The translations under genes and the position numbers were made by a program. The notes under the pieces were generated by a model. That model searched no databases, had not been told where the DNA came from, and saw only the letters and a program-made list of their open reading frames with translations. This document shows positions 442 to 54,742 of a stretch of 64,000 nt of DNA, piece after piece (position 1 is the first letter of the stretch; the number at the start of each line of letters is the position of its first letter). This DNA comes from Candidatus Nanopelagicales bacterium. Lineage in GTDB: Bacteria; Actinomycetota; Actinomycetes; S36-B12; GCA-2699445. The stretch spans positions 50,362-114,361 of the forward strand of contig JAXLSJ010000007.1 in assembly GCA_046330625.1 (NCBI GenBank), read 5' to 3'.

Positions 442-1293
442 TCAGTTCGTGCCGGACGGCGGGGTCGAGCCGGTGGAACCGCCGGCCGGGGGTGCGCTGG
501 TCGACGAGGTCGAGCCTCCGGCTGCCGGCTTCGGAGCGGGAGGCGCTTCCACGGCGGGAGTCGCCGGTGCCTCGACGGCGGCCGGCGCGGATCCGCCGCC
601 GATCTCCGCCTTGAGCGCGGCCAATTGGCTGTCGACGTCGCTCTGCGAAGCCATCGCCTCGAGTTCGCGGGTCAGATTGTCCTTCGTTGTCCCCGTGGGG
701 TCGTCGAGGGCACCCGACGCGAGCAGTTCGTCGATCGCGCCAGCCCGGGCCTGCATGGTCTGGGTCTTCTCCTCGGCCCGCTGGATCGCGAGGCCGACAT
801 CGGACAGTTCCTCGGAGACACCGGAGAAGGCCTCGTTGATCTTGGTCTGCGCCTCGGCGGCCGAGTACTGCGCCTTGATCGTCTCCTTCTTGGTGCGGAA
901 GGAGTCGACCTTCGCCTGCAGCCGCTGCGAGGCGTCGACCATCTTCTCTTCCTGGTCCTGCAACTGGCTCAGCTGCGTCTGCAGGTCGTTGAGCTGCGTG
1001 GTAAGTCCGGACCGACGGGTCAGCGCCTCGCGCGCCAGGTCCTCCCGGCCGCCGGCCAGGGCTGCCTTGGCCTGACCCTCGAGCTTGTCGGCCTGCTGCT
1101 GCAGTCCCTGCATCTGCAGTTCGACCCGCTTGCGACTGGTCGCGACATCCGCGACTCCCCGACGGACCTTCTGCAGCAATTCGAGCTGCTTCTCGTAGGA
1201 GTAATCCAGCGTCTCGCGCGGATCCTCGGCCTTGTCGAGCATCTTGTTCGCCTTGGACTTGAAGACCAGGGTGAATCGCTGCCAGAAGCCCAT
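442..1293 (-). CDS. pspA: PspA/IM30 family membrane-stress protein
   Basis: Internal ATG at 1293 of track ORF 442..1671 gives MGFWQRFTLVFKSKANKMLDKAEDPRETLDYSYEKQLELLQKVRRGVADVATSRKR..., typical PspA/IM30 coiled coil with a Pro/Ala-rich C-terminal tail. The upstream 126 codons of the track ORF are Arg/Gly-rich and were rejected. Confidence 0.88.
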   Translation of the reverse strand: MGFWQRFTLVFKSKANKMLDKAEDPRETLDYSYEKQLELLQKVRRGVADVATSRKRVELQMQGLQQQADKLEGQAKAALAGGREDLAREALTRRSGLTTQLNDLQTQLSQLQDQEEKMVDASQRLQAKVDSFRTKKETIKAQYSAAEAQTKINEAFSGVSEELSDVGLAIQRAEEKTQTMQARAGAIDELLASGALDDPTGTTKDNLTRELEAMASQSDVDSQLAALKAEIGGGSAPAAVEAPATPAVEAPPAPKPAAGGSTSSTSAPPAGGSTGSTPPSGTN

Positions 1294-2229: not shown

Positions 2230-3285
2230 GTGTCCGTCACCCGCACCGCAGCTCTGTCCGTCGTCCTCGCGGCCACCACGTTCGCCGGGGTCTCCCCCGC
2301 GTCGGCCGCCCCCGATCCCGACCGTGGTCTGTTCGGGATCCAGGACCCCACCTACGACGGCGTCTACCGCCAGGGCCTGGCCATCACCGGGCTCGTCGCC
2401 GCCGACCGTAGGGTCCCCCGCTCCGCGGTGTCCTGGCTTCTGCGCCAGCAGTGTGCAGACGGGTCGTTCGTGTCGTACCGCCCCGACACCACGCTGCCGT
2501 GCCCGGCACCGGACCCCACCAACTACACCGGTCCGGACAGCAACTCCACGGCGATCGGGGCCATGGCGCTGCGCGCCACCGGCGACAAGGCCCATGCCCG
2601 CTCCGCCCTGCGCTACCTGCGGAAGATGCAGAACGACGACGGCGGATTCCCCTACTACCGAGGCGGGTCGAGCGACACCAACAGCACGGGGTTGGCCCTG
2701 GCTGCGCTGAACGGGTCGCGCGCGACCAAGTCGGTTCTGGCGCAGGTCAAGGACGCCACGCGGTACCTGGGTTCCGTGCAGTTCCGGTGCCAGGGGGCGG
2801 CAAGCGACCGCGGGATGATGTCCTACCAGCAGGCGCCGTTGACGGCGAACACGCTGGCGACTGCTCAAGCGGCGCTCGGCATGGTCACCACGCTTCCCAG
2901 TACCCCTCGTCCGACCCGTGTCTCGGGCGTGCGCTGTGTGGGGTCGCTGTCGACCAGGCCCGTGTCACCGGCAGGTGCGGCGTTGGCCGCCCTGCGGCGA
3001 CAACTGGCCGACGGACTGCTGCCCAGCGCGTTCGGGTCCGACGGCGACGCGTCGGCGACCGCCCAGGCGATCATCTCGCTGAAGGCTGCGGGAGTGCGCG
3101 GCCGCGACCTGCGTCCCGCCGTGCGGGCGCTGCGCCGGGTGGCCGCTACATACACGGTGGCCGGGGGTTCGACCGATGCCGGCGCCGTCGGCACATTGAT
3201 CCTGGCGGCGACGGCGACCGGCTCGGACCCGCGTGACTTCGGCGGCGTCGACCTGATCGCGGCCCGTCGGGCCAGCCGTCGATGA
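2230..3285 (+). CDS. secreted prenyltransferase/squalene-oxidase-repeat (terpenoid-cyclase-fold) protein
   Basis: GTG start, signal peptide MSVTRTAALSVVLAATTFAGVSPASA. Repeats of the QxxDGSF / QNDDGGFPY type (LLRQQCADGSFVSY, LRKMQNDDGGFPYYRGG). Confidence 0.7.
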   Translation: MSVTRTAALSVVLAATTFAGVSPASAAPDPDRGLFGIQDPTYDGVYRQGLAITGLVAADRRVPRSAVSWLLRQQCADGSFVSYRPDTTLPCPAPDPTNYTGPDSNSTAIGAMALRATGDKAHARSALRYLRKMQNDDGGFPYYRGGSSDTNSTGLALAALNGSRATKSVLAQVKDATRYLGSVQFRCQGAASDRGMMSYQQAPLTANTLATAQAALGMVTTLPSTPRPTRVSGVRCVGSLSTRPVSPAGAALAALRRQLADGLLPSAFGSDGDASATAQAIISLKAAGVRGRDLRPAVRALRRVAATYTVAGGSTDAGAVGTLILAATATGSDPRDFGGVDLIAARRASRR

Positions 3286-9540: not shown

Positions 9541-9685
9541 CCCCAGGTGGGTACTTCGACGCTACTCCCCCGGGTCAGCCGGGACCAAGGCGACACATCG
9601 GGTCAAACTCCTGATCGGGATTGACTCCGCAGCGTGAGCGCACCTTCACTGATTGAGCTCCACGCGCCACCCCCTTGGAGGCACT

Positions 9686-11140
9686 ATGAAGAAGACACTC
9701 GCCATCGTCCTGGTGGGAATTCTGATGGCCCTGGTGGCGCCGGGCGCCGCCCGTGCCGCCGATCCGCCGATCGGCACCGCCTGGGCGGGCGTACAAGAGG
9801 GCAGCAGCATGCGCATTCAGTCGATCGCCACCAACGGGGCCGGCACGTGGGTGGCCATGACCGTGTTCCTAGGCCCGGGGACCCCCCAACGGAGCACCAA
9901 CAACGGCGTGACCTGGTCGGAAGCAGCAACCCCGCCACCTGTGGTGGACGGCACCAGCGACTACGCCTTCAACGACGTGGCCTGGTGCAATGACCGGTTC
10001 GTGGCCGTCGGGACGGCAATCGAGAACGACACCGCGCGGGCCGTGACCGCCTGGAGTCTCGACGGCAACACGTGGAGCACCGTTCTGCCCATCGGCAACG
10101 GCAGCACTGTGAATCCCAGCAGTCTCGCCTGCAACGGCAACAACGCGGTGGCCGTCGGTAGCGCCTTCGGGAGTGGCAACTACACAGTGATCACGAGTTC
10201 CGACGCTGGGGGGAGCTGGACGGCGACCACGGACTTCACCGGCTCTTTCGGGTACAGCTGGAGGGGTGTCACGTATCGCTCCGGCATCGGCTTCGTGGCA
10301 GTTCGCAGCGGCACCGGCACCGAGGACGTGATGATTTCCGATGACAACGGCGTGAACTGGACCGCCAATGACAGCGGCGTGAGTGGAAACTGGAGCGCAG
10401 CGGCGAACGACGGCACCACGATTGTGGCGGTGGCGGACGGGGGCACCAACCGCGTCATGACGTCGACGAACGGAGTCGACTGGACGGCTCGGACTGCCGC
10501 CGTCGACCTCTCCTGGAATGACGTCGCTTCTGGCAGCGGGACCTTCGTGGCAGTGGCATTGGACGGCACGTTCGACCAGCAGATCATGACGTCGACGAAC
10601 AGTGGCGCCAGCTGGACATCACGCCCGGCCCCCGCGGAGAACAACTGGGCCGCGGTCGGCTACGGCGCCGGTGGCGGTGGCGTGCCCGCGCGTTTCGTGG
10701 CCGGGGGCCGGGCATTCACCAGCACTCCGGAGGGAGTCAACTACCTGTACACCACACCCACCCCGACGGCACCGCTGGCGCCGGCCGTCGCGGTGGACGT
10801 CCTGAGTTGGACCACGCCCATCTGGGCCGCGACCAGTGGTCTCACCACCTACACCGTCGTGTACAAGAAGACCGCGGACGCCGGCAACCCGTCGGTCCCC
10901 TGGGGGGTGTACGCCCAGCGCACCACGGCATGGCCGGGCGGCGCCCTTCCCCTGAGCGTGAGGCTAAACGCCACTCCCGGCAACTGCGGCCTCACCAACA
11001 CCACGGCGGGGTGGACGAACTGCCCCATGCCCAGAGGCAACCTCCTCCCGGAGACGTCGTACACCTTCCGGGTGTTCGCCCGGTCGGCCACCAACCTCGG
11101 AACCATGTCGAGCCCGGTCACCTACATGGAGGTCGGCTGA
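9686..11140 (+). CDS. secreted BNR/Asp-box repeat beta-propeller protein with C-terminal FN3-like domain (paralog 1)
   Basis: ATG 9686 preceded by GGAGG. Signal peptide MKKTLAIVLVGILMALVAPGAARA. Repeated S-x-D-x-G-x-x-W boxes (STNNGVTWS, SLDGNTWS, SSDAGGSWT, SDDNGVNWT, STNGVDWT, STNSGASWT). Confidence 0.72.
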   Translation: MKKTLAIVLVGILMALVAPGAARAADPPIGTAWAGVQEGSSMRIQSIATNGAGTWVAMTVFLGPGTPQRSTNNGVTWSEAATPPPVVDGTSDYAFNDVAWCNDRFVAVGTAIENDTARAVTAWSLDGNTWSTVLPIGNGSTVNPSSLACNGNNAVAVGSAFGSGNYTVITSSDAGGSWTATTDFTGSFGYSWRGVTYRSGIGFVAVRSGTGTEDVMISDDNGVNWTANDSGVSGNWSAAANDGTTIVAVADGGTNRVMTSTNGVDWTARTAAVDLSWNDVASGSGTFVAVALDGTFDQQIMTSTNSGASWTSRPAPAENNWAAVGYGAGGGGVPARFVAGGRAFTSTPEGVNYLYTTPTPTAPLAPAVAVDVLSWTTPIWAATSGLTTYTVVYKKTADAGNPSVPWGVYAQRTTAWPGGALPLSVRLNATPGNCGLTNTTAGWTNCPMPRGNLLPETSYTFRVFARSATNLGTMSSPVTYMEVG

Positions 11141-11261
11141 CCTGGACCGACGGGCAGCGGGGACCAAGGCGACACATCGGGTCAAACCCCCAAGTGCGTT
11201 TGACTCCGTAGCGTAACCACATTTTCACTGAATGCGTTCAACGCGCGGGCCCGGAGGCACC

Positions 11262-12713
11262 ATGAAGAAGACACTGGCCATCGCCCTGGCGGCCATGCTG
11301 ACGGCAATGGTTGCCCCCGGCACCGCCCAGGCGGCCGATCCGCCGATCGGCACCGCCTGGGCGGGCGTGCAAGAGAGCGGCAACAAACGGATCTTGTCGG
11401 TCGCCACCAACGGGACCGGCACCTGGGTAGCCATCACCCTTGCCGGAGCTCCCGGGACCCCGCAGCGGAGCACCGACAATGGGGTGACCTGGACCACCGC
11501 AGCCACCCCGCCTCCCGTGGTGGAGCCCCAAACGACGGGCAATGCGTTCAACGACGTCGCTTGGTGCAATGACCGTTTCGTGGCCGTGGGGAAGGCATTC
11601 ACGGAAACCAGCGATGTCACCGTGACGGCCTGGAGCACCGACGGCAACACGTGGACCACAGTCCTTCCCACCGGTAACGCCAGCGGCGTGTCGCCCCAGG
11701 ACATCGCCTGCAACGGCAACAACGCCGTCGCCGTCGGCGGCGCCCTCGAGGGTGGCGACTACACGGTGCTCACCAGCTCCAACGCCGGGCTGAGCTGGGC
11801 GGGGCGCACGGACTTCACCGGCTCCCAAGGCTACGACTGGCGGGGAGTCACGTACCGGTCCGGCGTTGGCTTCGTGGCCGTTCGCGGCGGCACCGGCACC
11901 AATGATGTCATGATCTCGACCGACAATGGCGCGAACTGGACCGGCGACGACAGCGCTGTGAACGCAACGTGGAGCACTGTGACGAACGACGGCACCACCA
12001 TCGTCGCCGTCGCCGACGGTAGCCCCACCGACAACCGGGTCATGACCTCCACCGACGGAATCGCGTGGACGGCTCGAACCGCGGCCGCCAACATCTCGTG
12101 GAACGACATCGCGGCTGGTGGCGGGACTTTCGTGGCTGTCGCCTCGGGGGCAAACGCCGACACCCAGATCATGACGTCAACGGACAGTGGCGCCACCTGG
12201 ACATCACGCACAGCGGCAGCCAAGAACAACTGGAACGCGGTCGGATACGGTGGCTCGCCGTCACGGTTCGTAGCAGGGGGCAACACGTTCAACAGCATTC
12301 CCGCGAACGTCAACTACATGTACACCACTCCCACCCCCACGGCGCCGCAGTCCCCGTCCGTCGTGGACGAGACCCTGAGTTGGACCACACCCATCTGGAC
12401 CGCGACCAGCGGCCTCACCACCTACACCGTCGTCTACAAGAAGACAGTCGACGCCGGCAACCCGGCGGTCCCCTGGGGGGTGTACGCCCAGCGCACCACA
12501 GCATGGCCCGGCGGCACCCTTCCGCTGCAGGTTGAGCTCAACGCAACTCCGGGCAGTTGCGGCATCACCAACACCACGGCGGGATGGACGAACTGCCCCA
12601 TGCCCAGAGGCGCCCTGCTCCCGGACACGTCGTACACCTTCCGGGTGTTCGCCCGTTCGGCCACCAACCTCGGCACCATGTCGAGCCCCATCACCTACAC
12701 GATCATCGCCTGA
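11262..12713 (+). CDS. secreted BNR/Asp-box repeat beta-propeller protein with C-terminal FN3-like domain (paralog 2)
   Basis: ATG 11262 preceded by GGAGG. MKKTLAIALAAMLTAMVAPGTAQA. Same Asp-box series (STDNGVTWT, STDGNTWT, SSNAGLSWA, STDNGANWT, STDGIAWT, STDSGATWT). The C-terminal part is nearly identical to paralog 1. Confidence 0.72.
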   Translation: MKKTLAIALAAMLTAMVAPGTAQAADPPIGTAWAGVQESGNKRILSVATNGTGTWVAITLAGAPGTPQRSTDNGVTWTTAATPPPVVEPQTTGNAFNDVAWCNDRFVAVGKAFTETSDVTVTAWSTDGNTWTTVLPTGNASGVSPQDIACNGNNAVAVGGALEGGDYTVLTSSNAGLSWAGRTDFTGSQGYDWRGVTYRSGVGFVAVRGGTGTNDVMISTDNGANWTGDDSAVNATWSTVTNDGTTIVAVADGSPTDNRVMTSTDGIAWTARTAAANISWNDIAAGGGTFVAVASGANADTQIMTSTDSGATWTSRTAAAKNNWNAVGYGGSPSRFVAGGNTFNSIPANVNYMYTTPTPTAPQSPSVVDETLSWTTPIWTATSGLTTYTVVYKKTVDAGNPAVPWGVYAQRTTAWPGGTLPLQVELNATPGSCGITNTTAGWTNCPMPRGALLPDTSYTFRVFARSATNLGTMSSPITYTIIA

Positions 12714-12799
12714 CGGGTCGACGGAGTCCCAGAATCGGTCACTCCATGTCGCCGTGTGAACTACGCTTCAGGCCACGGAGCGGGGGCATGGAGGCATAC

Positions 12800-12940
12800 A
12801 TGGTCGACGCTGGTCATCGGGGCTGGGTGACGCCCCAATTGGTGGCGCTGGGCACGTCCCATCATTCACGCAATGCCTCAGCTCCGGGTGACTCCGTCGA
12901 CAGCACCTACAGCGAGGTCCCACAGGGCTACGTGTCCTGA
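12800..12940 (+). CDS. putative RiPP (lasso-like) precursor peptide, locus 1
   Basis: MVDAGHRGWVTPQLVALGTSHHSRNASAPGDSVDSTYSEVPQGYVS. GGAGG 5 nt upstream of ATG 12800; in-frame alternative starts at 12788 and 12746. Stop lies 8 nt before the AsnB-like gene. WVTPQLVALG fits the YxxPxLxxxG lasso leader pattern (W for Y). Confidence 0.4.
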   Translation: MVDAGHRGWVTPQLVALGTSHHSRNASAPGDSVDSTYSEVPQGYVS

Positions 12941-12948
12941 CATCGACC

Positions 12949-14703
12949 GTGGTGTTCGAATCCGTCACCATTCGCTGGCGCGCCGAGCGTCGCCTCGAGA
13001 TCATCAAGTTCCCTGGCGACAGATCCGACAGCCGACCGACCGACGGCGGCGTGGCCACGGGCGCCATCACGGAAGCCGAAGGCAACGTTGTCGTCGAGCA
13101 CTTATCGCACCATGATCATCCCGACGCAAACCTGCCCGACACCCCTTGGCTGGCGGTTGCGCAACGTGGGCACGGTGTCCTGGCTGCCGCCTGCTCGACG
13201 CTTCTGCCCAGTGGGATCTTCTGGGCCGCGACAGCGCATGGACTGCTGATCGCATCCGACCCCGGCGCGATCGTGACCCGCCTCCCCTCGCCACCCGCAC
13301 TGTCCGACGACTACCTGCGTGACTACCTGCTCAACGACTGCCCACCCGAGGCCACGCCCTATGAGGGGGTCCAACGGATCCCCGCGGGTCACACCGCAGT
13401 CTGGAACGATCCTTTCCGATCGCCGCAGCTCCACCCGTGGGTGGGGCCGGATCACTGGGACACCCCGCACCTCATGGGTCCGACCGCGGTCGAGGAGTAC
13501 CGTCGCGCCTTCGACCGGGCGGTCGCGACCCTCGGAAGCCGGACCTGACCTTTGATCACCCAGGTGTCCGGCGGGCTGGACTCGACCTTCGTGGCGGCAA
13601 CCCTCGCACGACAGACCACGCCCGACCGCCCCGTCATCGGACTGATCCATGTGCCGCTGGCCGAGGCCCAGCTGCAACCTCGGGGCGGCATGGACCCCGA
13701 CGAGTCTCACCTGGCACATACCCTCGCCGCCGCCTACCCGGGTCGGCTGGTGGTGCGGGAGGTGCGTAACGAGGAACTGATCTCACCGCTCGATGCGTCA
13801 GCCGAGATGTCCACCCGGTCGTGGCTCCCGGTCTTCAACCCGGCCAACCAATCCTGGATGACCGCCATGAACCGCATCGCCGCCCACGAAGGCGCCGAGT
13901 TGCTGTTCGCCGGTGGGAACGGAAATGCCGCCTTCAGCCATGACCATCCCTATGCCGCCCGTTACTACCTGTCCCGCGGGCGGTTGCCCACCTTGTTGTC
14001 GTTGGGCACGGTCGATGGTTCGCCGTCGATGTCGAGACTTCGGGGTCGGGTGTTGTCACCCCTACTGCCGCGGACCCCCCAGCCCCCGACCAGCGCCCAT
14101 CTGGGGCTGCCGCCGACTCCGCCACCCCGGCACGAGCACCCCCGAATCCACTACCTGCGCTGGCTCGCCCGCGCGAACAGCGGTTTGATGGCAGCGCAGA
14201 ATCCGGCCGCCACCGAAGGAATCCTCAAGGCCGACCCGTTTCTCGCCCGGGCTGTGTTGGACGTGGCGGCGGCGATCGAACCTGCGGAGTGGCAGCGCGG
14301 CGGTGGTTCCCGGAGTTTCGCGCGGCGCCTCGGCCTCGGCCGGGTTCCCGACGACATCAGGCTCCGGAAGCGACGCGGCGCGCAGGGCTGGGACGCCTGG
14401 TATGTGGTGCGCAACGACCGGGACCGGTACCTGGCCGAGATCGACCTGCTGCGCGACACCCCAGCCCTCGGCGGCTGGGTGGACGATCGGCGGCTCGCTG
14501 CGACCGTTGCGGCCTGGCCGTGGGGGGCAACTCACGGGCCGGGTCCGGGAGAACTCCACACCGTCCATCGTCTGCTGGCTCTGGCGGCGTTCGCCCGCGA
14601 TACGACTCGGCGGCTTGCGACGCTGACTTCCCAGCCCGTGGCGGAGTCGGGGGTGATAGCTTCTCGTCAGGTCGGCTCACTCGCCGGCCGCCGACGGGGG
14701 TGA
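12949..14703 (+). pseudogene. asparagine-synthetase-like / lasso-cyclase-like enzyme interrupted by an in-frame TGA
   Basis: Track ORFs 12949..13548 and 13552..14703 are in the same frame, separated only by TGA 13546..13548 (…ATLGSRT*PLITQVSGGLDSTFVAA…). SGGLDS is the AsnB-type PP-loop. The C-terminal region (DPFLARAVLDVAAAI...RKRRGAQGWD) is AsnB/lasso-cyclase-like. No N-terminal Cys2 glutaminase nucleophile. Confidence 0.65.
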
Positions 14704-14707
14704 TTAC

Positions 14708-15370
14708 GTGCGTCTGCCATTCCTCAAAGTGGCAACGGCGGGCAGGACCCCAGCCAGGTCGCTGATCCTGCTGCCCATGGCAGCCACAATGTGCCTGTCC
14801 ATCGCCGCGTGTGGCGGAACCACACCGGTCGAGGGGACGTCAGCCACCGGCGCCGCATTCGTGGAGGCGCTGTCCACTTCCGTCGACTACGAAGCCAGCG
14901 ACTCCGTCACGGAACTTGTACACCAGGTCGAACCTGAGCAGGCCGTGACCGGCCAGATCATCTCCGTGTCACCGGGCTACGACCACGAGAGCCTGGACCT
15001 CCGCACCGCAGTGATCGCCGTCGACACAGACGACGGCCGCCGTCTCTTCGTCGACATACTCGGCCCTCAGACCCCCGACGGCTTCTCTACCGCCCAGGCG
15101 GCCCTCCCGGTGCGGGCCACCATTCTGGTGCGGGAACCTACCAGGGAAGAACGGGCGGACATGACCCCCGTCACGGGCACGCCAGATCGCCTCGACGGAG
15201 TCGCCTGGGCCCCCCAGAGCATCTTCGTCGACACCACGACCGATGACGGCAAGACCGTGGTCCAGCAACTACCCGACGGGAGCCTTCCCGAGTTGAGCGG
15301 CATCCCCGTCACGGACGTGACCGATGTGGCCGAGGCCGTCAATCGGGAGATCGCCTCTTCCCAGGGGTAG
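14708..15370 (+). CDS. putative lipoprotein
   Basis: GTG start. Lipobox-like MCLSIAAC followed by GGTTPVEG. Acidic soluble domain, no family recognised. Confidence 0.5.
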   Translation: MRLPFLKVATAGRTPARSLILLPMAATMCLSIAACGGTTPVEGTSATGAAFVEALSTSVDYEASDSVTELVHQVEPEQAVTGQIISVSPGYDHESLDLRTAVIAVDTDDGRRLFVDILGPQTPDGFSTAQAALPVRATILVREPTREERADMTPVTGTPDRLDGVAWAPQSIFVDTTTDDGKTVVQQLPDGSLPELSGIPVTDVTDVAEAVNREIASSQG

Positions 15371-20379: not shown

Positions 20380-21573
20380 TCACACCCCCGCCGCCACCAA
20401 CTCCGCGACATCATCCTCACGTCCGAACGACCCGGGCTCGTAGGAGCAGAGCGGATCGTCGGCGAACACGTCGTGACTGTCGCCGAACGCCCGGGGTCGG
20501 GAGCCGCCGCACACGGCCCGGAACTCGCACGACCCGCACCGACTGTGGGGGGCGTCCGGGTCCCGCAGCGACCGGAACAACTCCGAGTCGCGATAGATCG
20601 CGGCGAGCGAGTCGTCACCCACGTTGCCCGCCGACACCGGCAGGAACCCGCTGGGGTAGACGTCGCCGGTGTGGGACACGAACACGAACCCCCGGGCCGC
20701 GCTCACGCGCAACGGCGGTCGGCGCATGTGATCACGCTGTCGGCGCGGGGACAGCAGCGTGAGGCGACGGCTGAGCATCTGGTAATCGGTGCCGAGTCCC
20801 AGCTCGGCCACGGGGTCGAGGCCCTCGCGTTCGCACAGCACCCGCTGGATGCACACCCGGCGGAAGGACGGTGCCTCCGTGGTCTTCAAGGACACGATCT
20901 TGTCCGCGTCGTAGCAGAAGTGCAGGACGTCCTCGGCCTGCTGCGACGTCAGCTGCGCCAGATCGGCGCCCCGGCCTGTGGGAACCAGGAAGAACACCGA
21001 CCACGTCATGGCCCCGAGCCGGTCGACGGTGTTCACGATGTCGGGCAGCTGCTGCAGGTTCGCCGGGGTCACCGTGGTGTTGATCTGGACCTTCAAACCC
21101 AGGTCCCGCGCCGTGCGCCACCCGGCCATCGTGCGGCGGTGGCTGCCGCAGACACCCCGGAAGTCGTCGTGAGTCGCCGGGTCGGACCCGTCCAGGCTGA
21201 GCGATATGGCGTGGCAGCCCGCCTCACGCAGCCGGGTGAGGTTACGCCGGTCGAGGGCCTCGGTGCCCGACGGCGACACCGCCACGGGGAGGCCGATCTC
21301 GGCCCCGTACGCGACGAGCTCGAACAGGTCGGGTCGTTCGAAGGGATCGCCCCCGGTGATCACGAAGAACGGTGGCGGCGAGCCGAAGGCCAGCACCTGG
21401 TCCATGAGTCGCCGAGCCGCTGCACCGTCGAGTTCGGCCGGGTCGCGGTCCGGGACAGCGTGCGCCCGGCAGTGGCGGCACGCCAACTGACAGGCCCGCG
21501 TGGCCTCCCAGATGACGATGAACGGCCGCTGGGTCAGATCCAGATGGCTGCGCCGCAGCGCCCGGGCAGCCAT
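20380..21573 (-). CDS. radical SAM / SPASM domain protein
   Basis: CxxxCxxC cluster in WEATRACQLACRHCRA. C-terminal Cys-rich SPASM-like region (RCGSCEFRAVCGGSRPRAF...DPLCSY). N-terminus resembles AhbD/NirJ/PqqE-like maturases. Confidence 0.85.
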   Translation of the reverse strand: MAARALRRSHLDLTQRPFIVIWEATRACQLACRHCRAHAVPDRDPAELDGAAARRLMDQVLAFGSPPPFFVITGGDPFERPDLFELVAYGAEIGLPVAVSPSGTEALDRRNLTRLREAGCHAISLSLDGSDPATHDDFRGVCGSHRRTMAGWRTARDLGLKVQINTTVTPANLQQLPDIVNTVDRLGAMTWSVFFLVPTGRGADLAQLTSQQAEDVLHFCYDADKIVSLKTTEAPSFRRVCIQRVLCEREGLDPVAELGLGTDYQMLSRRLTLLSPRRQRDHMRRPPLRVSAARGFVFVSHTGDVYPSGFLPVSAGNVGDDSLAAIYRDSELFRSLRDPDAPHSRCGSCEFRAVCGGSRPRAFGDSHDVFADDPLCSYEPGSFGREDDVAELVAAGV

Positions 21574-21576
21574 GGT

Positions 21577-21870
21577 TCAGGCACGCACCAGCCGCAACCG
21601 CCATTCGTCGGGGCCGCGCTGCAGGTACTCCACCGCGAGTGCCCCGTCATAGCGGTCATGGGCCTGGGCGAGCAGGGGTTTCGGATCGTGGGGCGCCACC
21701 AGCACCAGCGCCGAACCGGGGGCGATGCTGTCCAGCGCCCCGAAGACGGCGCCGTGGCGCACGGCATGCGGGATCACCCGAGCATCGAAGACGGGATCGG
21801 CGGGCTCAGCCCCGCAGTTGCAGGAACAGCCGCCATTGGCCGCAGCGGCCAGAGGGAGATCAGGAGTCAT
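21577..21870 (-). CDS. DUF2249 domain protein with Cys-rich N-terminus
   Basis: Internal ATG 21870 gives MTPDLPLAAAANGGCSCNCGAEPADPVFDARVIPHAVRHGAVFGALDSIAPGSALVLVAPHDPKPLLAQ...GPDEWRLRLVRA (DUF2249-like HDPxPL, GPDxW). The 95-codon upstream extension of track ORF 21577..22155 overlaps the AsnB-like gene and was rejected. Confidence 0.7.
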   Translation of the reverse strand: MTPDLPLAAAANGGCSCNCGAEPADPVFDARVIPHAVRHGAVFGALDSIAPGSALVLVAPHDPKPLLAQAHDRYDGALAVEYLQRGPDEWRLRLVRA

Positions 21871-21946: not shown

Positions 21947-23452
21947 CTAGACCGAACGGGCGGATGTCCAGTAGAGGTCGAGCGGGGCAGCGATGTCGGC
22001 CAACTCGGGGTACATCGTGTGGATGAGGTCGGTGGTGGGAGGCCACTCGGGCAGATGGTGCCGAACCCGATCAGGCTCCGGCGCCTTCGTGACGAACTTC
22101 TGGGTGGGGACCAACTCGGCGAGGAGTTCCTGGAACAGCCACCGCGACTTGCCATCGCGACGGAAGACAGGGGGTGGCAGCGAACATGCCACCTCGATGA
22201 CTCGGCGATCCAGTAACGGGAATCGGTACTCGACCCCGAACTGTCGACCCATCAGCCACCATGCCGCGGTCCGCCGTTCCACATGACCGAGGTGCAGCAG
22301 CCGCGACTGTCGCTGGTGCGGAGGCTCGAGCAACCGGAACGTCCGACGCTTGGACCGGAACGCGGACCTGTTCACATCTCGCCACGCGCGATCCATGGCT
22401 GTCGCAGGTGGCCGAAGAACGCGCCACGCAGACCGGACCGGTCTCGCTCCCGCCCGCGCCAGCACCCGCCACTCGCCCGTCCCTCCCGCAGCCGCTTCCG
22501 CCTTCACCTGTTGCCATGCCTGACGGAACTCGCCCTGGCCCACCATCCACCCGAACGGCGGCGTGCCGCCCGCCGAGGCAGCCTCATCGCCACCCCACCC
22601 GGAGAGGATCGTCGTCACCCCGGCCTCACGCGCCCAGCCGAGGATCACGGTCTCGTACTGGACCATCGTGTGCAGCAGGAAGATCAAGGGATCGAGATGG
22701 GGATCTGACAGGGCCGCCCTCATATCTGCTTTGGTCACGCAGCGCATCCGAACTCCGAGCGCGGCACCGATGCGAATTGACCGGTCATGCTCGTCGGGCG
22801 AACCGTCGGGCGATCTCACGTCTGAAGCGATCCATCCGTAGCCGGCGGCCAAAGCCTGACCCTGGGAACCCAAGAGCCGCTGAGCTGCAGCAGCAACCAT
22901 GGTCGAGTCGAGCCCCCCGCTCAGGTGGGCCGCAACCGGTGCACCACCCGCCGAAGCCAGGGCGTCCGAGACAGCCGCCAACACGGCCGACCTCAGAAGC
23001 GACTTCGCTTGGGCCACCCCCATCGGCCGACGTTTGACCCGCCGACTGTCGAAGTATCGAGAAAGGCGCCGGGTCGTCCCCTCGAGGACCACGATGCTGC
23101 CCGGAGGAACCTGGAACACGCCATTGAATACAGTCCGTGCCGGATCGGCAGGGGCTTGCATGAACAGTCGTGCGGCATAGTCGTGGTCGAGGGTTCCGTC
23201 CCAGCAGGACTCTCGGACAGCACGCAGGTCGGCATCCACCCGGAGGCCACCGGTCGCCGACCATCCGTAGTAGAGCGGGACCACACCCATGGGGTCGCGC
23301 ACGAGGACCGCGCGAACACCGTCGCTCAGATGGGCAGCGAACTCCCCCACCAGCCCGCTGGTCCTGCCGGTCGCCAGAGCCTTCTGCAGGAACTCGACGG
23401 GATCCGCGTCCGACGCGGTCGACAGCCACCCCCAGAAGTCGTGACATCTCAT
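21947..23452 (-). CDS. asparagine-synthetase-like / lasso-cyclase-like enzyme (intact)
   Basis: 501 aa. RDPMGVVPLYY (AsnB N-domain), PP-loop AAHLSGGLDSTMVAAAA, SGWGGDE, C-terminal FPLLDRRVIEVACSLPP. Starts MRCHDF, so it lacks the MCG glutaminase N-terminus. Confidence 0.72.
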   Translation of the reverse strand: MRCHDFWGWLSTASDADPVEFLQKALATGRTSGLVGEFAAHLSDGVRAVLVRDPMGVVPLYYGWSATGGLRVDADLRAVRESCWDGTLDHDYAARLFMQAPADPARTVFNGVFQVPPGSIVVLEGTTRRLSRYFDSRRVKRRPMGVAQAKSLLRSAVLAAVSDALASAGGAPVAAHLSGGLDSTMVAAAAQRLLGSQGQALAAGYGWIASDVRSPDGSPDEHDRSIRIGAALGVRMRCVTKADMRAALSDPHLDPLIFLLHTMVQYETVILGWAREAGVTTILSGWGGDEAASAGGTPPFGWMVGQGEFRQAWQQVKAEAAAGGTGEWRVLARAGARPVRSAWRVLRPPATAMDRAWRDVNRSAFRSKRRTFRLLEPPHQRQSRLLHLGHVERRTAAWWLMGRQFGVEYRFPLLDRRVIEVACSLPPPVFRRDGKSRWLFQELLAELVPTQKFVTKAPEPDRVRHHLPEWPPTTDLIHTMYPELADIAAPLDLYWTSARSV

Positions 23453-23486
23453 CGCAGCGGGAAACAGTCACTCATGATGACCCTGC

Positions 23487-23606
23487 CTAGGAGGACAAAA
23501 TACCGCCGATCGCTTCGGGGTCTAGCGCTTCGCCCCCTTCCGACGACGCACCGGAGCTGAGCGCTACGAGCTCCGGCCGTACCCAGGGCTCCTGCTGGGT
23601 CGACAT
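23487..23606 (-). CDS. putative RiPP (lasso-like) precursor peptide, locus 2
   Basis: Hand-translated 39-aa ORF absent from the track: MSTQQEPWVRPELVALSSGASSEGGEALDPEAIGGILSS, ATG 23606 to TAG 23487. Ends 34 nt upstream of the AsnB-like gene. Shares W-V-x-P-x-L-V-A-L with the locus 1 peptide. Confidence 0.45.
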   Translation of the reverse strand: MSTQQEPWVRPELVALSSGASSEGGEALDPEAIGGILSS

Positions 23607-54436: not shown

Positions 54437-54742
54437 GCCGCTTCCGTCGTGGTGCTCCCTGGATTGTGCTCCCTTCCGGAGGGCAACGAGCAACGGCAAA
54501 CGTTTGCCTTTCGGATCCCGTCCCGGGCGTGCCGATGCCAGGGACAGACTGACCGCGTCCGGGACCGCCCGGCAGCACACCTGGGAGGGGCCCATGCGGC
54601 AATCCACCTCCGGAGCCACCGCCCCATCCGTTCTCTGGTCGACCCCTCGACTGACCCTGATGGTGGCAGGCGGCCGCGCCGAGAACGGTGGCAGCAGCCG
54701 CGCCACCGACGGCGGCAGCGCGAGCTACGGGAGTTGACGGCG

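Follow-up and report, generated by a model that had tools for sequence, protein, structure and literature searches.

Here we describe a small open reading frame (ORF) that directly precedes a gene for an AsnB-like protein in a Candidatus Nanopelagicales bacterium (contig JAXLSJ010000007.1, assembly GCA_046330625.1; the 64,000-nucleotide stretch that was analysed is hereafter called the window, and has a G+C content of 69%). An earlier note on this DNA had read the ORF as the precursor of a ribosomally synthesised and post-translationally modified peptide (RiPP). Two ATG codons, at 12788 and 12800, share one frame with the translation (MEAY)MVDAGHRGWVTPQLVALGTSHHSRNASAPGDSVDSTYSEVPQGYVS and a TGA stop at 12938-12940, and each follows a Shine-Dalgarno sequence, GGAG at 12777-12780 lying 7 nucleotides (nt) 5' of the first and GGAGG at 12790-12794 lying 5 nt 5' of the second. 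The GTG start of the AsnB-like ORF at 12949 comes 8 nt after the peptide stop, so that the two starts, their Shine-Dalgarno sequences and this spacing are all as the earlier note had them. The peptide ORF also forms the 3' end of a 127-codon shadow ORF in the same frame (12557..12940). The public assembly calls the 50-codon form starting at 12788 as a gene; most relatives have ~7 residues ahead of the leader Trp, and ATG 12800 therefore fits slightly better than ATG 12788. Near-identical sequence is present in wastewater and activated-sludge metagenomes, and a scan of positions 12300-13200 for promoters and terminators found nothing. The features are collected in Table 1.

The N-terminal part of the peptide contains an instance of the motif [Y/W]xxPx[L/V/I/A/F/Y]. 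Leaders of this type are bound by the discrete RiPP recognition element (RRE) proteins of lasso peptide clusters, termed B1, and in paeninodin-like precursors the first motif position is almost always Trp (WxxP) (PMC13381572), while in Bradymonadales precursors YxxPxL occupies positions -17 to -12 relative to the core (PMC10368454). The RRE-binding motif looked for in the leader of a lasso precursor (A) is thus present, as WVTPQL at 12824, with the core starting 16 or 17 residues after the Trp (W+16 or W+17). A six-frame motif search with W-V-x-P-x-L-V-A-L gave exactly two matches in the window, at 12824 (+) and 23585 (-), against 3e-4 expected from the six-frame residue frequencies of the window, which bears out the leader motif that the earlier note had seen in both peptides. 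Both ORFs sit directly upstream of genes with a Pfam Asn_synthase domain.

Table 1. Features of the peptide locus and of related loci in the window.
Feature	Position	Strand	Remarks
Precursor peptide gene (A)	12788..12940	+	50 codons from ATG 12788, 46 from ATG 12800
Leader motif W-V-T-P-Q-L-V-A-L	12824..12850	+	instance of [Y/W]xxPx[L/V/I/A/F/Y]
Predicted leader/core junction S-R-N (W+14 to W+16)	12866..12874	+	core start Asn 12872 or Ala 12875
Invariant Asp (W+25, D-S-T-Y-S motif), predicted isopeptide acceptor	12899..12901	+	from family alignment
AsnB-like predicted macrolactam synthetase (C)	12949..14703	+	584 codons, SGGLDS PP-loop, translationally coupled to peptide gene
In-frame TGA	13546..13548	+	seven codons before SGGLDS loop; aligns with conserved Gly (GGA)
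Two tandem secreted paralogues with C-terminal FN3-like domain	9653..11140 and 11232..12713	+	72% identical
Predicted lipoprotein, 220 aa, lipobox ..IAAC	14708..15370	+	no family match
Second precursor-like ORF MSTQQEPWVRPELVALSSGASSEGGEALDPEAIGGILSS	23487..23606	-	39 codons, ends Ser-Ser; 34 nt before AsnB-like gene
Second AsnB-like enzyme, 501 aa	21947..23452	-	orphan, best database relative 32% identical
Third precursor-like ORF MRQSTSGATAPSVLWSTPRLTLMVAGGRAENGGSSRATDGGSASYGS	54594..54737	+	family profile E=1.4e-4

The ORF belongs to a conserved peptide family

Loci of relatives (numbered with the prefix L) were taken from assemblies, species-representative genomes and metagenomes. The earlier note had suggested searching other genomes for motif-bearing ORFs beside AsnB-like genes, and in most family loci fetched a small [W/Y]xxPx[L/M/A] ORF does adjoin the orthologous AsnB-like gene, usually just 5' of it and no more than a few bases from the enzyme start, with this position and coupling kept in more than 15 loci. 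By its account a disrupted peptide ORF beside an intact enzyme in close relatives would speak against the reading; the closest relative (L001, enzyme 73% identical) carries an intact peptide ORF, MPQDHGSRAWQAPRLFPLAAPGGAMANPTGSKTDSTVSDIPQGRSGYAYTS, that ends 3 nt before an intact enzyme gene, and the gene found disrupted is the enzyme of the present assembly. A metagenome scan returned no relative nearer than ~47% identity, so L001 stays the sole close relative. A large subgroup from metagenome-assembled genomes (MAGs) of Actinomycetes, Nanopelagicales and Acidimicrobiales shares one peptide consensus, ..W-x-x-P-x-L-V-x-L-A-x-S-x-D-[SA]-[RK]-N-N-x-S-G-x-G-D-x-D-x-T-Y-S-G-F-P-Y-G-Y-S, and in the alignment of this subgroup the window peptide is a divergent member. 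The family comprises 28 called clusters, one of them found on 54 contigs, and every name given by the sources is 'hypothetical protein'.

A family profile was built from nine peptides of L003, L005, L007, L009, L048 and L091, all of which have the B2 transglutaminase-like peptidase of lasso clusters, together with L001 and L090, and with no window sequence. Searched against all 1135 stop-to-stop six-frame segments of the window, it ranked the ORF 12788..12940 first (E=6.6e-11), a match that demonstrates homology to precursors from complete lasso clusters. The peptide genes of L005 and L007 differ by nine synonymous and no non-synonymous codon changes, and two peptide copies in L009 differ by 11 synonymous and six non-synonymous changes, all six lying in a stretch of 12 residues that begins with the Trp and in which the L009 peptides differ. 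The ORF is homologous to conserved small genes under purifying selection beside orthologous enzymes. The view of the earlier note that chance ORFs were unlikely is upheld by the profile match and by the synonymous-only change in relatives, while its picture of a conserved leader with a divergent core applies only when the two window peptides are compared with each other; among members of the peptide's own family the core is strongly conserved.

The two L009 precursor genes (786..896 and 2356..2466) encode the same core, ADARNNISGTGDVDATYSGFPYGYS, behind different leaders, WTAPTLVRL and WVRPELVVL, and thereby invert the usual pattern of one leader with different cores.

The partner enzyme is a divergent AsnB-like protein

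The protein encoded downstream of the peptide matches Pfam Asn_synthase and belongs to a family without a conserved N-terminal Cys. It has what is looked for in a lasso C enzyme, being AsnB-like, devoid of the glutaminase nucleophile and encoded next to A, with the caveat that its reading frame contains a TGA codon, a point that the earlier note had missed. A word-indexed search gave 31 relatives of the enzyme, most of 480-630 amino acids (aa), which read through the position of the TGA, and the closest reads RTGPL across it. Contigs of four public runs were compared with the enzyme region; one wastewater-metagenome contig covers 13450-13698, and its sole difference in these 249 bases is G for T at 13546, giving GGA, which means that an intact allele of the enzyme exists. 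Either the T at 13546 is a nonsense mutation peculiar to this strain, or the assembly is in error there. The public gene call for the enzyme starts downstream of the TGA and covers a 379-aa fragment. All residues invariant in a 12-member family alignment are present in the window enzyme, as follows from its being one of the 12.

A profile search found 619 representatives of the enzyme clade at E<=1e-30, and at least 112 clusters at 50% identity reached E<=1e-95 among the matches listed; the sole name given by the sources is 'asparagine synthase-related protein'. Using an AlphaFold2 model of family member P0010 (predicted local distance difference test score, pLDDT, 88.8), the best PDB folds over both domains were carbapenam synthetase, beta-lactam synthetase, TsnB9 and AsnB, and the enzyme is accordingly modelled with an AsnB / beta-lactam synthetase fold. 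A PDB sequence search returned no solved lasso cyclase, only weak matches to AsnB, beta-lactam synthetase and TsnB9. Comparison of profiles with hhalign gave a probability of 99.6% for a link between the enzyme clade and that of the second AsnB-like protein of the window; the latter clade includes the cyclase of a canonical lasso cluster (L044: NTP_transf_5, C, PqqD, Transglut_core3 and ABC, with the precursor MSRAWTTPTLVVLASR...NGPS). An RRE fused to the enzyme was also considered and rejected, since the AlphaFold2 model consists of two AsnB-type domains and a helical C-terminal extension with no winged-helix domain.

Relatives' loci carry lasso biosynthesis genes

A B2 peptidase is encoded in L003-L007, L009, L045, L048, L049, L054, L058 and L091; among the relatives, the NCBIfam model lasso_biosyn_B2 scored 64 bits (cut-off 33), and Pfam Transglut_core3 matched too. 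PqqD occurs in L003, L091, L011, L004, L006, L010, L014 and L016. Relatives also carry an ABC transporter, an HPrK-like/sulfotransferase fusion and NTP_transf_5, with kinase-like genes in L002, L003, L005, L007, L008 and L012. In kinase-containing lasso clusters the C-terminal Ser of the precursor is conserved and phosphorylated (PMC9266682). All three precursor-like peptides of the window end in Ser, and a kinase homologue was not found in its 64 kb. Taken together, the C-terminal Ser, the leader motif and the lasso gene set of the relatives argue that the peptide is homologous to lasso precursors.

A bare A-C layout with an intact C recurs in L001 and L090, the latter from wastewater; neither B1 nor B2 was found in the flanking sequence, which spans 10 kb on each side in L090 and about 6 and 4.3 kb in L001. 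In L011, L014 and L016, PqqD is present and B2 was not found in the fetched flanks.

The architecture of L002/L011, L014 and L016, with a PqqD-like RRE but no B2 within 6-8 kb, is intermediate between full clusters and bare A-C pairs. L002 also has two AsnB-like genes, HPr-kinase-like genes and NTP_transf_5.

Leader/core junction and ring register

Statistics for the junction come from 26 aligned family peptides. The spacing from the leader Trp to the Asp of the D-x-T motif is 25 residues in 24 of the 26, and Asn stands at W+16 in 25. Position W+14 holds Ser or Ala and W+15 in most cases Arg or Lys; at W+17 the family has Asn, Ser, Ala or Asp. Three members carry Asn in place of the second consensus Asp (W+23), which therefore cannot be a universal acceptor. 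The earlier note had pointed to Ser at W+14 in both window peptides, which we also see, and had correctly counted Asp at positions 7 and 10 from Asn W+16. Its placing of Ser W+14 at -2 is plausible, with Ser or Ala at this position across the family. However, Asp-7, which in the W+16 register is a feature of the window peptide that is not conserved across the family, is an unlikely ring acceptor, as the only invariant acid is Asp W+25. A core that begins at W+17 puts this invariant Asp at position 9, and one that begins at W+16 puts it at position 10, against a lasso acceptor range of 7-9.

Judging from these patterns, the core may begin at Asn W+16 (register a, that of the earlier note), with Ser/Ala at -2 and a 10-residue ring to the invariant Asp. 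To our knowledge, a ring of 10 residues would exceed every size known among lasso peptides. Alternatively, the core may begin at Ala W+17 (register b), with the Trp at the canonical -17 and a ring from Ala1 to Asp9, which leaves a variable charged residue at -2 (R/K/E across the family, compared with Ser/Ala in register a) and the invariant Asn at -1. For the window peptide we give register (b) slightly more weight than register (a), which would be the novel case. Asn as ring position 1 has a precedent in metanodin, the first experimental case, from a Gammaproteobacterial (Steroidobacterales-related) metagenomic cluster (PMC12670498); metanodin, however, keeps Thr at -2, and Asn1 in the present peptide would mean the 10-residue ring.

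Neighbouring genes

Upstream of the peptide gene lie the two secreted FN3-domain paralogues, and downstream of C the lipoprotein and then gltX. A gene for a secreted Gly_rich_2 and/or FN3-like protein immediately precedes the peptide gene both in the window, where there are two copies, and in eight related loci, among them L001, L003, L005 (three), L007 (three), L009, L090 and L091, in up to 3-4 copies, and the order of secreted protein, peptide and enzyme is kept down to 45% enzyme identity. We know of no counterpart of this secreted protein in described lasso clusters. The 220-aa lipoprotein is probably not a member of the system, having no counterpart in related loci. The housekeeping genes cobT/cobS, gltX and leuA stand between the peptide loci and the window edges. 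The G+C content at third codon positions (GC3) of both A-C pairs (12788..15370 and 21947..23606) is 0.73-0.81, compared with 0.89-0.93 in the flanking gltX, leuA and ilvE-like genes, which suggests acquisition and insertion into conserved regions of the chromosome.

Second and third precursor-like ORFs in the window

The family profile matches the peptide of the second locus at E=6.7e-4, and its core counted from W+16, GGEALDPE, would form a canonical G1-E8 ring. Its ORF has no recognisable Shine-Dalgarno sequence and is not called as a gene in the public collection. At its N-terminus the second AsnB-like enzyme falls ~110 residues short of its relatives (501 versus ~615 aa), which include cyclases of canonical lasso clusters. 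To call the two loci paralogous, as the earlier note did, is loose: a relation exists, but the two enzymes are only ~19-26% identical and are linked by profile comparison alone. This second locus consists of A plus C alone and lies between an ilvE-like gene and DUF2249/radical-SAM/leuA genes. Directly downstream of its AsnB-like gene are a DUF2249 protein (~21577..21800, -) and a radical SAM/SPASM gene (20380..21573, -). The latter was considered as a tailoring enzyme, but both are probably unrelated to the peptide; the radical SAM/SPASM protein matches TIGR04053 (458 bits, cut-off 395) and is flanked by DUF2249 and leuA.

The third ORF has GGGAGG 5 nt upstream and a C-terminal Ser, resembles the peptides of L013 and L090, and is called as a gene in the public assembly. 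Its neighbours are a LacI-type regulator on one side and, starting ~4 nt past its stop, a secreted CarboxypepD_reg-domain protein on the other; no AsnB-like gene is nearby.

A probable lasso-type precursor and its candidate cyclase

We conclude that the ORF 12788/12800..12940 probably encodes a lasso-type RiPP precursor (A) that is coupled to a divergent putative macrolactam synthetase (C), and the RiPP interpretation of the earlier note is, with the corrections given above, supported. On this reading the pairing of a lasso-type precursor and a cyclase is of a known kind, from which the locus departs by an unannotated divergent clade, an atypical junction, a stripped-down gene set and an enzyme gene that is interrupted in this assembly. 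As we picture it, the N-terminal part would serve as the leader, with WVTPQL as the handle for a PqqD-like recognition protein, and the C-terminal 21-22 residues as the core. Cleavage would fall after Arg W+15 (Asn1, 10-residue ring) or after Asn W+16 (Ala1, 9-residue ring), and the AsnB-like enzyme, of a divergent clade without the glutaminase Cys, would adenylate the invariant Asp W+25 and join it to the freed N-terminus of the core in an isopeptide ring. The aromatic tail (..STYSEVPQGYVS) could then be the threaded plug. Removal of the leader would depend on B1/B2 encoded outside the 64 kb or on another protease. Because the leader keeps the recognition motif, maturation would be expected to need a recognition protein and a peptidase encoded elsewhere, and such a pair may be shared by the several WxxPxL precursors of this genome.

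Several observations weigh against this reading. The enzyme gene is interrupted by the TGA in the assembly, and NCBIfam lasso-cyclase models reach 15-82 bits where the cut-off is 525, a relative of the enzyme scoring 15. Profile and phmmer searches of the 64-kb window found no homologue of B2, PqqD, kinase, nucleotidyltransferase or ABC proteins: the best match to a B2 transglutaminase-like peptidase had E=0.19, no PqqD-like RRE matched at E<0.05 (best 0.56 in another search), and phmmer with the relatives' kinase, nucleotidyltransferase, ALTTAQ-repeat and ABC proteins gave nothing. Scans of the peptides with Pfam and NCBIfam returned no family match, and a search for RNA-seq runs found none that covers the region. 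Likewise, the canonical Thr at -2 is absent from both registers, being replaced by Ser (a) or Arg (b); natural Ile/Val/Ala(-2) exceptions have been reported (PMC10368454), so that Thr at -2 is typical and not absolute.

The strongest rival is that the locus is a decaying remnant, a descendant of a lasso cluster that has lost B1, B2 and its tailoring genes, carries a nonsense codon in C and yields no mature product. The TGA and the lack of B1 and B2 in 64 kb speak for it, several positions of the window core deviate from the family consensus, which is tight (EVPQGYVS in place of GFPYGYS is one example), and the lower GC3 of both A-C pairs than of the housekeeping flanks is compatible with foreign DNA. 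However, the near-identical contig from another wastewater metagenome encodes Gly at the position of the TGA and has no other difference in 249 bases, and the window enzyme retains every residue that is invariant in the family alignment. In the peptide ORF, too, the leader motif and the invariant Asn and Asp are preserved, as are the Shine-Dalgarno sequences and the 8-nt coupling, and L001 and L090 show that the A-C-only layout also occurs with an intact C. We regard decay as doubtful, though as an explanation to be taken seriously.

An extension of the lasso reading would make the locus part of a distinct lasso-like clade of Actinomycetota, marked by an Asn1 10-residue ring, by bare A-C pairs that share B1/B2 in trans or use another protease, and by a tie to the secreted FN3/Gly-rich proteins; this combination we consider unlikely.

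It is improbable, in our estimate, that the product is non-classical, the enzyme amidating or cyclising the uncleaved peptide without B2 or making an unthreaded branched-cyclic product, with a possible functional link to the secreted FN3/Gly-rich protein. The flanks of the window locus, L001, L090, L013 and L018 contain neither B1 nor B2, those of L011, L014 and L016 have PqqD without B2, and the conserved order of secreted protein, peptide and enzyme would suit such a scheme. Furthermore, the pseudomycoidin cyclase works on a bare core without leader or peptidase (PMC6993621), and linear peptides with the same leader motif exist (PMC13381572). The bare-core situation of pseudomycoidin nevertheless differs from the arrangement encoded in the window, where the leader retains its RRE-binding motif, which implies use of an RRE. 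The peptide contains no Lys or other internal amine, and an amide ring therefore requires a freed N-terminus, while orthologous peptides with the same core motif adjoin B2 and PqqD. Finally, an untranslated chance ORF in an intergenic or shadow frame, for which its shortness, its place in the frame of the 127-codon shadow ORF, the lack of a Pfam or NCBIfam match and of RNA evidence might be cited, is refuted by the comparative data, namely the profile match, the motif expectation per window, the synonymous-only divergence in relatives, and the position and coupling kept in more than 15 loci.

Rule-based miners that demand a B2 peptidase and an RRE would probably overlook A-C-only loci such as this. 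If a product is made, it would extend the paeninodin-like branch (WxxP, C-terminal Ser) to freshwater and wastewater Actinomycetota, and would offer a natural test of how flexible the -2 Thr and 7-9 ring-size rules are, of a peptidase supplied from elsewhere and of the role of the secreted partner.

Comparison with known systems

With paeninodin/pseudomycoidin-type systems the locus shares a Trp leader (WxxPx[L/I]) and a precursor that ends in Ser, and the family shares the split B1/B2 (PMC13381572, PMC9266682); the relatives' clusters also share the HPr-kinase-like protein, NTP_transf_5 and the ABC exporter. In contrast, the present family comes from Actinomycetota and Chlorobium MAGs and not from Bacillota, its cyclase forms a separate and very divergent clade, the junction is S/A-R/K-N rather than T-x, the cores belong to an N-x-S-G-x-G-D-x-D-x-T-Y-S-G-F-P-Y-G-Y-S family, and the window locus is without kinase, B1, B2 and exporter. 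Canonical actinobacterial clusters of the A-C-B1-B2 type, such as that of fusilassin/fuscanodin, likewise have a small A directly 5' of and coupled to an AsnB-like C and a leader motif that spans about -17 to -12, and their acceptor is an Asp, as is predicted here. However, their motif is YxxPxL, Thr stands at -2, and B1 and B2 follow immediately, whereas in the window C is followed by the lipoprotein and gltX, and A is preceded by a secreted FN3 protein.

The linear polyphosphorylated peptides (LPP) of Bacillota share a [Y/W]xxP leader bound by a discrete RRE, as well as HPrK-like and NTP-transferase neighbours, and the leader alone therefore does not prove a lasso product. Unlike the present locus, in which an AsnB-like enzyme is coupled to the peptide, LPP clusters have no macrolactam synthetase and use a signal-peptidase-like protease. 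Beta-lactam and carbapenam synthetases, which fit the enzyme model best across its two domains, use ATP to form an amide within one molecule, closing a lactam, and have a dead glutaminase domain. They act, however, on small-molecule substrates, show 13-15% identity and have no peptide partner gene.

The same enzyme clade also occurs in green sulfur bacteria (L004, L006 and L010, Chlorobium MAGs). Precursors in these MAGs combine a leader of the type W-[AGT]-D-P-x-M with a Cys-rich core, such as ..NTCGSYSDGSGCSSAA, and the clusters include B2, PqqD, NTP_transf_5, a sulfotransferase and a glycosyltransferase-like gene.

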